DNA of 64,000 bases from Eledone cirrhosa (GCA_964016885.1 OZ024741.1:70618001-70682000), one strand, 5' to 3'. Counted from the stretch's first letter, positions 19,901-22,900 are shown. The notes: generated by a model from the sequence alone, not told the origin. Numbers and translations are program-made.

Positions 19901-22900
19901 TGTTGCAACACGGCGCCACCAGTTGGAAGTCAGCAGCCACTCAAGCAACTTGGCCTCCATCAAAACATCAAATTCATGGTGAAGCTAGGGTGGAAGAGCA
20001 GCCAAATCATTGATGCTCTGGAGCAAGCATATGGGGACAATGTCCCCAAAGAAATCAACAACCTACAAATGGATGTCATTTTAGAAGTGGAAGAAATGTG
20101 TTTGAAGATGATCCCCAGTTGAAGATGTAAAAAAAGCTGCTTCAACAGGATTTAAATCACATGGCCCTCAGTTTTACTCAGATGGACTTAAAGGCTGGTA
20201 TCAATGCTTGCAGAAGTGTATTGATCTTGATGGAGCATATGTAGAAAATAAACATCATAACTTAAACCGTTTTTTCAAACTTTCCTTTTTACACAAACTT
20301 TTTGAAGCACCCTCACACACATGTGTGTGTGTGTGTTTATATATATAATGTAATATCTGTAGTATCTGATATTGAAAATTTATTTTCACAACATCCATTG
20401 TTGGCTCTATTCCCATCATCCAATCATTTTCATCCTTCCCCAATGTATGAGTCAATCATTTCATTCCATTTCCCTTTACAAAATTCATCAGTAAGTCTAT
20501 TCCAATCATTCTCTGCAATTCATTGTTTGTCCTCCTCTCTCTGAGATATATATATATATTTTTAAAGGTATCTACTTTGAGGAATTGGAATATCCAAAAC
20601 ACCCGTGACGTTAACATTGTAGCAACCAACCACATCCGAGCCAAAGTCAATGAACGTGTCCAAATACCTAATGAAGCAATCTATTGGTCAGCTCCTTCAG
20701 CCTATCTGGGTAACAAGGTTAGTGCATATTCTAGTTTTTGTACAATGTATTAACAATAAATATATTCCAAACTCATTCCTTCATATTTCAACATTTCTTT
20801 CTCTTTGTAATATACAAATTATGCCTACTTATCTTTATATATCAATATCCATCTTTTTCTATTATCTATTCTCTAGCTATCTATATCTGTCAATATGTAT
20901 ACATGCACACACACACATATGTATATATCTGTATATATTTTTTATATATGCATATCTATATATGTAAATATCTATATATGTATATATCTATACATAGATA
21001 TAACTTTATGCATACATATATATAAGTATATGTATCATTATATGTATGTATATATAAATATATATATATATATATATATATATTGAAGTTAATATGTCAA
21101 CCTTGAATCATAGACAACCTATGTATTTCTGGGGGTACCTAGTATCCCTGGACATATTAACTTCAATCTCTTTCTCCGTCTGTTGAGAACAATTCTGTTG
21201 TTCTATTTAGCTGCTATTTTTTTAGTAGTAATTGTAGACAGCAAGTCTTTGATTTTCCCGCTTTTACTTCGGTCCAGTTTACATACGGGTCACTTTTACG
21301 ACCTTTCAGACCTTTATTTGCTGGCAGGAGGTTATATATTTTGTCGTTCCTGGGACGTTTAGCCCTAGGAGGGGAAAATGCTTCTCTGATGAGCTTTGGT
21401 TTTCCATCATAAATCCATCGGATTTATGAGGTTTTACAAAGCGAAACTGATCAGTAAGGGCCACTAGGAGAGGTAAATATTTATATTATATTTTTTAATG
21501 TATTTTAAAAAATTGATTGAATTTTACTTGTTCTGCTTATCTTAATATATATATATATATATATATATATATATATATATATAGAAGTGGTTACACAACA
21601 GTTAGTTCACCATACCGAGAACAATTGTTTCACCTTAGCGGATCCTCAGCTCGTAATGGACATGGTTATACGGAACAGGAAGGACAACCGTATGAACGCG
21701 CATGCGCAGAAACCATCACTTCACACAGGGAATACTAAAAAGCGTGCGAGAAGTGTAAGGAAGATAACTGCGAAAGAGATTATGCAATAGTGATTGCCTA
21801 AACATGAGAAATGAATTCTTCACACGTTGTCCACACATCTCGAAACAACTCTTACATAACTACAAAGCTCCGGATTGAATCACATCCTAATTTTCTTATC
21901 AACTAGAAACTTTTCAGACTTTCGCAATTATCTCCCTTACACCTCTCGCATGCTTTTTAGTATTCCCTGTGTGAAGTGATGGATTCTGCGCATGCGCGTT
22001 CGTACAGTTGTCCTTCCTGTTCCGTATAACCATGTCCATTACGAGCTGAGGATCAGCTAAGGTGAAACAATTGTTCTCGGTATGGTGAACTAACTGTTGT
22101 GTAACCACTGCTACCTAACTCGTCCCATGGACTGAGTGCTCTACCACTACAGATATTACCTTCCAGTGTTCCCCCACTATATATATATATATATATATAT
22201 ATATATATATATAAATAAACACATGCATTCATCTTTACAAATGCTATTGTCTTTCATGCCTCTATATCTGAGCATAAGTAAGGTGACAACCTTGAAAAAT
22301 TACCGAGCTCCCCACCCCACTTATTCCAACTCCCCCGCTTATCCCCCCCTGCTTATTCCACACACACCCCTAGTATTTGGGACAAGAAAATAAAAGGATT
22401 CATTGACTATATCCTTGAAAACTACCTCAACATGGCAACAACCCAATGACAAACAAGTAAAAATAAAAGACATTCATGGAAATTTTCATTTTTTAAAGTA
22501 AAAATTATCTTCAGTTTCTTTATTCTAAATGGTTTATTTCATGACTTCAGATTCCTTCATATGGTGGCCAATTGAAATACAAGATTCTTTTTGCAAGTAG
22601 ACCAGATGGTGTGGAAACTGCAGGTCCTGATGTTATCTTAGTGGTAAGTAATATTTCTATGTATTACTATTATCATTTTGACATCTTTTTTTTATGGCTT
22701 ATGTGAAAGCCTAGTGGTTAAGGTGTTGAGCTCACAATTGTATGATCATAGATTTGATTTTCAGCACATTTTGTTCTTGAGCATGGCACTTCATTTTTCC
22801 AGCCCTCCCAGTTAAAAAAAAGCAGTATCATTGGCAGCTGAGGGTTAACTCTGCAATACATTGGAACCCCATTCTGGAGGTAATCTTGTGCTTTCTGATG

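Follow-up and report, generated by a model that had tools for sequence, protein, structure and literature searches.

Metazoan non-LTR retrozymes form a published class of elements that are likely derived from or mobilised by Penelope-like elements (PLEs), a link that was proposed in PMC7229834 and argued by homology in 10.64898/2026.07.22.740005. The integration of animal retrozymes is still a matter of hypothesis, the published support being co-occurrence with PLEs and homology to their pseudo-LTRs (pLTRs). The insertions of PLEs themselves are described as including partial tandems and an inverted copy truncated at its 5' end, with a tail of 30-40 bp that is often present at one end only, and as favouring (TA)n (PMC8557442); this tail lies between two reverse transcriptase (RT) start sites, both strands being cut and extended, and the PLE protein is predicted to be a dimer (PMC11167929). 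Here we analyse a window of 64,000 nt from Eledone cirrhosa (GCA_964016885.1 OZ024741.1:70618001-70682000), which holds in a laminin intron an ORF-less retrozyme bearing the PLE integration signature itself. We read it with considerable confidence as a single 5'-truncated and partly inverted non-LTR retrozyme copy in (TA)n, likely copied in trans by the RT/endonuclease of a PLE, with a predicted dimer-only ribozyme, and likely an inert passenger in its present place.

A first-pass annotation of the window had reported a type I hammerhead in an ORF-less unit of ~460 bp bounded by (TA)n on both sides. The core, stem II, hairpin, GAAA, palindrome and GUA all lie where they had been placed, and (TA)n is indeed present on both flanks (Table 1); the longest ATG ORF of a natural dimer is 34 aa, in agreement with the absence of an ORF. 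The length of the unit had to be revised, the true unit being 485 nt (numbered after the natural copy L029:1944-2428), of which the window holds the 5'-truncated main arm and a short inverted arm. The hallmarks of a hammerhead (CUGANGA, GAAA and NUH, three helices, and an open helix I) are all present, helix I being weak and showing one-sided variation only. The Rfam search that had been suggested as a check returned only microsatellite-driven miRNA-like noise around the element, with no hammerhead match at E<=1 (5 kb) or E<=10 (161 nt), probably because of the 50-nt stem II; a match to a covariance model is in any case a test of detection and not a defining property of hammerheads. Immediately to the right of the retrozyme, 21586-22110 of the same intron is occupied by a MITE/foldback-like element whose terminal inverted repeats are ~190 bp long and about 96% identical to each other.

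Table 1. Features of the retrozyme insertion, its host intron and PLE-1; positions are counted from the first nucleotide of the window
Feature	Position	Strand	Remarks
Laminin exon upstream of host intron	20568..20717	+	splice sites; in-frame join to next exon; without own Pfam match; presumably opens the Laminin_B domain
Left (TA)n target tract	21060..21081	no strand	within broader AT-rich tract 20917-21083
Inverted arm, exact reverse complement of 21151-67 (unit nt 91-107)	21082..21098	-	outer end = end B
Main arm, 485-nt retrozyme unit nt 38-485, 5'-truncated	21098..21545	+	~98% identity to other young copies
Tail remnant (107-nt tail between ends A and B)	21098..21167	+	end B at ~21167
Candidate lock/splint segment	21260..21273	+	predicted partner 21446-21461, spanning cleavage site
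Type I hammerhead motif, whole	21380..21461	+	predicted cut after 21456
Hammerhead stem I	21380-85/21457-61	+	U-A, C-G, U-G, bulge, C-G, G-C; weak
Hammerhead core CUGAUGA	21386-92	+	
Hammerhead stem II	21393-98/21437-42	+	whole 21393-21442, 50 nt including extension hairpin
Stem II extension, perfect 10-bp hairpin	21407-16/21420-29	+	
GAAA	21443-46	+	
Stem III palindrome ACUGAUCAGU	21446-55	+	
GUA cut site	21454-56	+	
End-A motif	21528..21545	+	family's main fixed 3' end at 21545; 20-mer spanning motif has 1,017 exact matches
Right (TA)n target tract	21546..21583	no strand	
Laminin exon downstream of host intron	22551..22643	+	Laminin_B match two exons further on
PLE-1, 5'-truncated Penelope-like element in (TA)n with own hammerhead-like motif	52003..53348	+	candidate trans-acting family

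The unit is one member of a real, young, high-copy retrozyme family that is new, the class itself being already known. A core 22-mer has 615 exact matches in the genome, the 3'-end (end-A) 20-mer has 1,017, and a 23-mer with <=3 mismatches has 2,890, with 0 for the reversed control in each case; judged from sequence matches, the repeat has about a thousand copies. The 615 exact matches against 0 in the control, taken with the compensatory changes among copies, indicate that the hammerhead is more than a chance motif. A DNA search of the same genome, in which 39 of 1,521 candidates were scored, gave top copies with 96-99% identity on many contigs, repeating head-to-tail with a period of 485 nt; the survey proposed by the first-pass annotation thus finds a repeat that is high-copy, dispersed, often tandem and set in (TA)n. 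Of 66 near-full units, 46 form a young subfamily with an internal difference of 2.8%, which differs by 10-22% from most of the older ones, and these nonetheless retain the entire unit. Two or more same-strand hammerheads occur in 16/74 insertions. Tandem ORF-less units of a few hundred nucleotides, each with a type I hammerhead and a low GC (35%), which are dispersed and multi-copy without an evident LTR-retrozyme organisation, give the 485-nt family all those defining features of metazoan non-LTR retrozymes that can be tested on sequence; the predicted circle of the unit is also structured (z = -5.9 against 40 shuffles). Four contig sets of unrecorded kind cover the unit, such contigs being unable to show ends, strand or level.

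Unusually clear evidence of PLE-driven movement comes from where copies stop in the genome. There are two fixed stops, namely end A at unit nt 485 and end B at nt 103-109 of the next unit, 107 nt apart. Among 74 insertions, 43 are A/truncated, 22 A/B, 7 B/truncated, 2 neither, and 0 A/A or B/B, in a sample drawn from 71 merged stretches (the 30 best DNA matches, the first 30 matches to two patterns on contig C1, and a further 20 selected places); the search patterns skew this sample to end A and to contig C1, and local duplicates are included (L126 twice, L104 three times). The inverted insertions number 24, of which 22 are A/B (21 with one duplicate counted once) and none is A/A or B/B, the remaining two (L132, L133) having one degraded end each; under independent and equal use of the two sites, 21/21 A/B has a chance of 5e-7. 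TA-rich flanks adjoin 91/94 A or B ends vs 28/54 truncated ends of these 74 insertions, and a target-site duplication cannot be defined, the flanks being (TA)n. The 5' breakpoints do not pile up at the cut site (nt 397; 1/85), which suggests that the template is likely a circle or an uncut multimer. Two fixed 3' ends, a one-sided tail, inverted and tandem insertions, and an AT-rich target are together what marks PLE-mobilised elements, and since two such fixed ends are typical of PLEs, the unit is likely copied by PLE enzymes. The rule that an inverted insertion ends at A on one arm and at B on the other also accounts for the 17-bp inverted repeat with which the first-pass annotation had the element open: the match of 21082-98 to 21151-67 is perfect as reported, but it is a short arm ending at B that is specific to the insertion rather than an intrinsic terminal feature, and arms of this type are found in 21 other insertions. 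A MITE or TIR DNA transposon was considered and rejected, as the inverted arms range in length between ~10 nt and several units, and 50/74 insertions have none. One inverted array, L145 (G000:C1:336046500-336052500), carries ~4.5 units on its longer arm and 2.2 on the shorter, with differences of 0-2 nt in 428 between units, indicating that both arms were copied from a near-identical template. In the three-unit array L029:1501-2914, which has no substitutions among its units, a 1-nt stem I deletion is common to the two upstream units and absent from the 3'-most one.

Two related families were recovered. A 525-nt sister family, ~74% identical to the 485-nt family (L216, L229-L231, L246-L265), has the palindrome ACUGUACAGU, the CUGAUGA core in 28/31 copies, a GUU (18/31) or GUA (13/31) cut site, and a U-U at the base of stem II like that of axolotl HHR_Amex2. 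Its 10 inverted insertions with both ends in view comprise 8 A/B, 1 B/B (L248) and 1 uncalled; three spurious B calls by the end classifier at non-inverted loci (L252, L254, L259) were left out by strand. A more distant 483-nt family (L277-L306), ~58% alike over the ribozyme (147 exact matches), has a CUGACGA core, a perfect 5-bp stem I and the palindrome ACCGCGCGGU, and both of its inverted insertions (2/2) are A/B. The 483-nt and 485-nt families have in common a hairpin after end A. More diverged relatives (75-80%) adjoin several 485-nt copies.

The ribozyme of the 485-nt family is well conserved, with the CUGAUGA core kept in 81/91 copies and pairing in 96.5% of the cells of 59 distinct copies, against 30-50% in slid controls. 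Compensatory changes include U-A to C-G in stem III (14/59 distinct copies) and U-A to G-C in the stem II extension (22/59), and the covariation score was reached by 0/500 shuffles, these counts reflecting few independent events; in a joint alignment across families, 34/47 copies lack an intact first pair in stem II. Across the 485-, 525- and 483-nt families stem III is a perfect 10-nt palindrome in four different sequences. These changes of the palindrome include the would-be loop, which matters only if two ribozymes pair, and this points to dimer-dependent cleavage; the four palindromes thus offer natural evidence of selection for cleavage as a dimer. Predicted folding of the window copy places the active monomer fold 7.1 kcal/mol above the free fold, and makes the double hammerhead (-58.2) more stable than two free monomers (-55.8), with the free dimer fold 3.1 kcal/mol below the double hammerhead. 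We hence predict a ribozyme that cuts only as a dimer, a preference resembling that of the dimeric PLE-type and amphibian hammerheads, which are described as poor cleavers alone (PMC4209133; PMC7229834). Among vertebrate retrozymes, 8/9 tested dimers are reported not to cleave (bioRxiv 10.64898/2026.07.22.740005). The first-pass view of a non-autonomous, hammerhead-carrying retroelement that targets (TA)n is supported, and the element probably works as a dimer.

Among the resident PLEs, the best candidate partner is PLE-1, which we take to be Neptune-like from its motifs and whose ORF gave no match in Pfam. It is abundant (58,976 first-look candidates for its endonuclease, with ORFs up to 727 aa; also L091-L095), and carries a hammerhead-like motif with a mostly CCGAUGA core, a palindromic stem III and a ~120-nt stem II region, as well as an unusually long tail of ~180 nt. 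Of its inverted copies with both ends called, 13/13 have one site per arm (A/B). PLE-2 (L176-L185) is young, with many open frames of 758 aa, a pLTR that is TA/TG-rich and degenerate, and a compact hammerhead lying just 5' of the ORF; PLE-3 (L249:1-3440) is near full-length, has a CUGAGGA-core hammerhead with a long stem II, and lies in a (TA)n tract in common with a 525-nt retrozyme. The few named homologues of a resident PLE include Argonauta and Octopus proteins. The hammerhead-like motifs of PLE-1, -2 and -3 are each their own and different. Local alignment detected no extended similarity of the unit to the ends of PLE-1, -2 or -3 (106, 269 and 215 of 300 shuffles scored as high). An 18-nt motif before end A is weakly common to the unit and PLE-1 (14 matches; 30/2,000 shuffles), and the hairpin after end A of the retrozymes is absent from PLE-1.

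The succession of hammerhead, end A, tail and end B is the architecture of a PLE pLTR, and 24/57 Xenopus retrozyme families match known TEs, nearly all PLEs, at the pLTR (10.64898/2026.07.22.740005). The unit might on this basis be a pseudo-LTR split off from a rare autonomous PLE that persists in the genome, its copies being truncated or ORF-deleted products, an interpretation that we regard as improbable. Among the matches listed (first 100 per pattern), on which the ORF check rests, no PLE ORF is contiguous with the unit at any of the 71 stretches, 25 sister-family loci, 11 loci with a hybrid end motif or 28 loci of the 483-nt family; the unit likewise has no ORF for RT and GIY-YIG between pLTRs as autonomous PLEs do. 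In the nearest case (L249) a TA tract intervenes and the PLE has its own pLTR, and other nearby PLE fragments either run in the opposite orientation or are set apart from the unit, TA tracts being one such separator. Arrays as long as 7 unit segments on an arm pair (L145) contain no ORF, and subfamilies 10-22% apart retain the entire unit. The first-pass annotation had itself raised the prospect that the element is just the terminal repeat of an ORF-bearing Penelope element, which is not so at any locus examined. All 11 matches to the hybrid end-motif pattern are retrozymes. A short-stem-II hammerhead pattern gave 52 genome-wide matches against 0 in the control (L186-L215), and among the 30 examined one was related (a deleted retrozyme copy), most of them belonging to one further unrelated family. 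Two same-strand end-A matches 2.8 kb apart (L115/L116) were considered as a pLTR-ORF-pLTR arrangement and rejected as a local duplication in a microsatellite.

A segment upstream of the ribozyme may act as a lock or splint. In four folding contexts of the window copy, 21260-68 is predicted to pair with 21453-61 over the cut site with probability 0.77-1.0, and the active helices reach a predicted probability of <=0.003. Eight of the nine positions pair in 87-91 of 91 copies, the exception (55/91) facing the nucleotide just 5' of the cut. Extended to 14 pairs, the helix is 84% paired vs 23-46% in slid controls, and among 38 copies in three groups it shows two-sided changes at 3 pairs (36 cells; 0/500 shuffles); in swap tests, cognate pairs were best or <=0.4 kcal/mol from the best. 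In whole-circle folds its probability is only ~0.15 in old and 525-nt monomers, and it is absent from the predicted fold of the single 483-nt copy folded, whose palindrome is broken. We hypothesise that this lock splints the cut ends and blocks re-cleavage, which would suggest a way for the circles to be protected.

The host is a laminin gene on the + strand, with Pfam EGF_laminin and Laminin_B matches on + strand ORFs, and the host intron spans 20718-22550 (1,833 nt). Same-strand Laminin_N exons lie 42-117 kb upstream of the window, so that the earlier label of 'intron 9' is not the gene's own numbering and at best a count within the window; a laminin protein search confined to 2,000 aa yielded no alpha chain for mapping the exons. 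Other introns of this gene contain antisense non-LTR reverse transcriptase frames at 2465-4015 (-) and 24759-26462 (-), of 516 and 567 aa, which we take to be RTE-like. The sense orientation of the copy, with an intact core and GUA site, had raised the concern that every laminin pre-mRNA is exposed to self-cleavage. That this copy is an active ribozyme cutting the laminin pre-mRNA and altering expression appears very unlikely to us, even when one considers that protein-assisted folding of a PLE hammerhead is reported (PMC11167929) and that family RNAs might pair in trans. It is the only retrozyme copy in the window, the lock is strongly and the active helices scarcely predicted in all four folding contexts, the insertion is young (~98% identity to the family), and single PLE-type hammerheads are described as poor cleavers (PMC4209133, PMC7229834). 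Being single and predicted to be locked, the intronic copy is unlikely to cleave the laminin pre-mRNA, and its laminin location is probably incidental.

Spread as a DNA-level minisatellite by unequal crossover or segmental duplication, with the hammerhead as a non-functional relic, is similarly unlikely, although tandem arrays and local duplicates (L104, L126) exist and units differ by 0.4% within arrays vs 2.6% between them (a contrast dominated by one array, with the array mate strictly nearest in only 27/84 segments). The copies are scattered among unrelated flanks, their 3' ends are fixed, their 5' truncations differ in extent and some are inverted; the ribozyme, moreover, has compensatory changes and a retained palindrome.

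For a retrozyme moved by PLE enzymes, we propose the following cycle. Tandem arrays would be transcribed, the palindromic stem III would bring adjacent hammerheads together as a pair, and their cleavage after GUA would free 485-nt monomers, which would then be circularised. The segment ~185 nt upstream is predicted to pair over the cut site, holding the ends together as a splint and preventing a second cleavage. A PLE enzyme, probably acting as a dimer, would nick both strands of a (TA)n target, with reverse transcription primed at A for one strand and at B for the other; the template would be a circle or a multimer left uncut, and the RT would read past its cut site. Such double priming could yield truncated monomers as well as head-to-tail arrays and inverted insertions. 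What is seen at the DNA level is that insertions in TA runs stop at A and B, which lie 107 nt apart, and that inversions have one site per arm. The one-site-per-arm rule makes a sharp and testable prediction on PLE double priming, for a 485-nt RNA on which two start sites are mapped and a target of (TA)n. More speculatively, the 485-, 525- and 483-nt families might constitute a small cephalopod-type radiation that hijacks a PLE enzyme through RNA structure and not pLTR homology, with coupled start sites about 107-120 nt apart, one per strand, and a covarying splint that favours ligation and keeps the circle uncut; this we advance tentatively, as a possibility somewhat short of even. If true, it would constitute direct genomic proof of animal retrozyme movement and supply, in 485 nt, a minimal template on which PLE double priming could be dissected. 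The value of the family thus lies in its integration signature, four palindromes and possible splint, and not in its laminin location.

The first-pass suggestion of a possibly undescribed family agrees with our literature search, which found no description of the 485-nt family or of a two-end rule for retrozymes; subscription papers, the 2014, 2020 and 2026 supplements (which may list cephalopod families), Repbase and Dfam were outside its scope. Set against the metazoan non-LTR retrozymes as presented in PMC7229834, the unit has in common the ORF-less low-GC tandem organisation, the type I hammerhead with a palindromic helix III, the occurrence as dispersed monomers and multimers coexisting with PLEs, and a structured circle (predicted here). 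It differs in its length (485-525 nt here vs about 170-400), 50-nt stem II, strict (TA)n targeting, lack of a definable TSD, and fixed two-end rule, as well as in the predicted lock, the ribozyme being left free in most of those circles, with some mussel ones excepted; circles and cleavage have been demonstrated for them (PMC7229834), whereas our unit is known from DNA and predicted folds. With the vertebrate non-LTR retrozymes of 10.64898/2026.07.22.740005 it has in common the class and the proposed PLE dependence; its size falls inside their 51-972 bp range, and intronic copies are common there too (about 43% in Xenopus). Their link to PLEs is drawn from co-occurrence and pLTR homology, and ours from an integration signature. 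The PLEs described in PMC8557442 and PMC11167929 resemble the unit in being truncated at the 5' end, in forming partial tandems and an inverted copy alongside, and in having a one-sided tail, AT-rich or (TA)n targets and a hammerhead near the ends, but the unit is without their RT/GIY-YIG ORF, and its tail is 107 nt (~180 nt in PLE-1) vs the published 30-40 bp (PMC8557442). Like the minimal and dimeric PLE hammerheads of PMC4209133, its motif has a short helix I, a longer helix II, a palindromic helix III and a (predicted) dimer requirement, and unlike them it sits in an ORF-less carrier with a full 10-nt palindrome and a hairpin extension of helix II. Finally, Chlamys elements such as MRC1 are likewise non-autonomous, PLE-type and inserted head-to-tail, but according to PMC8557442 they resemble their autonomous partners at the 3' end and belong to a clade without canonical hammerheads.
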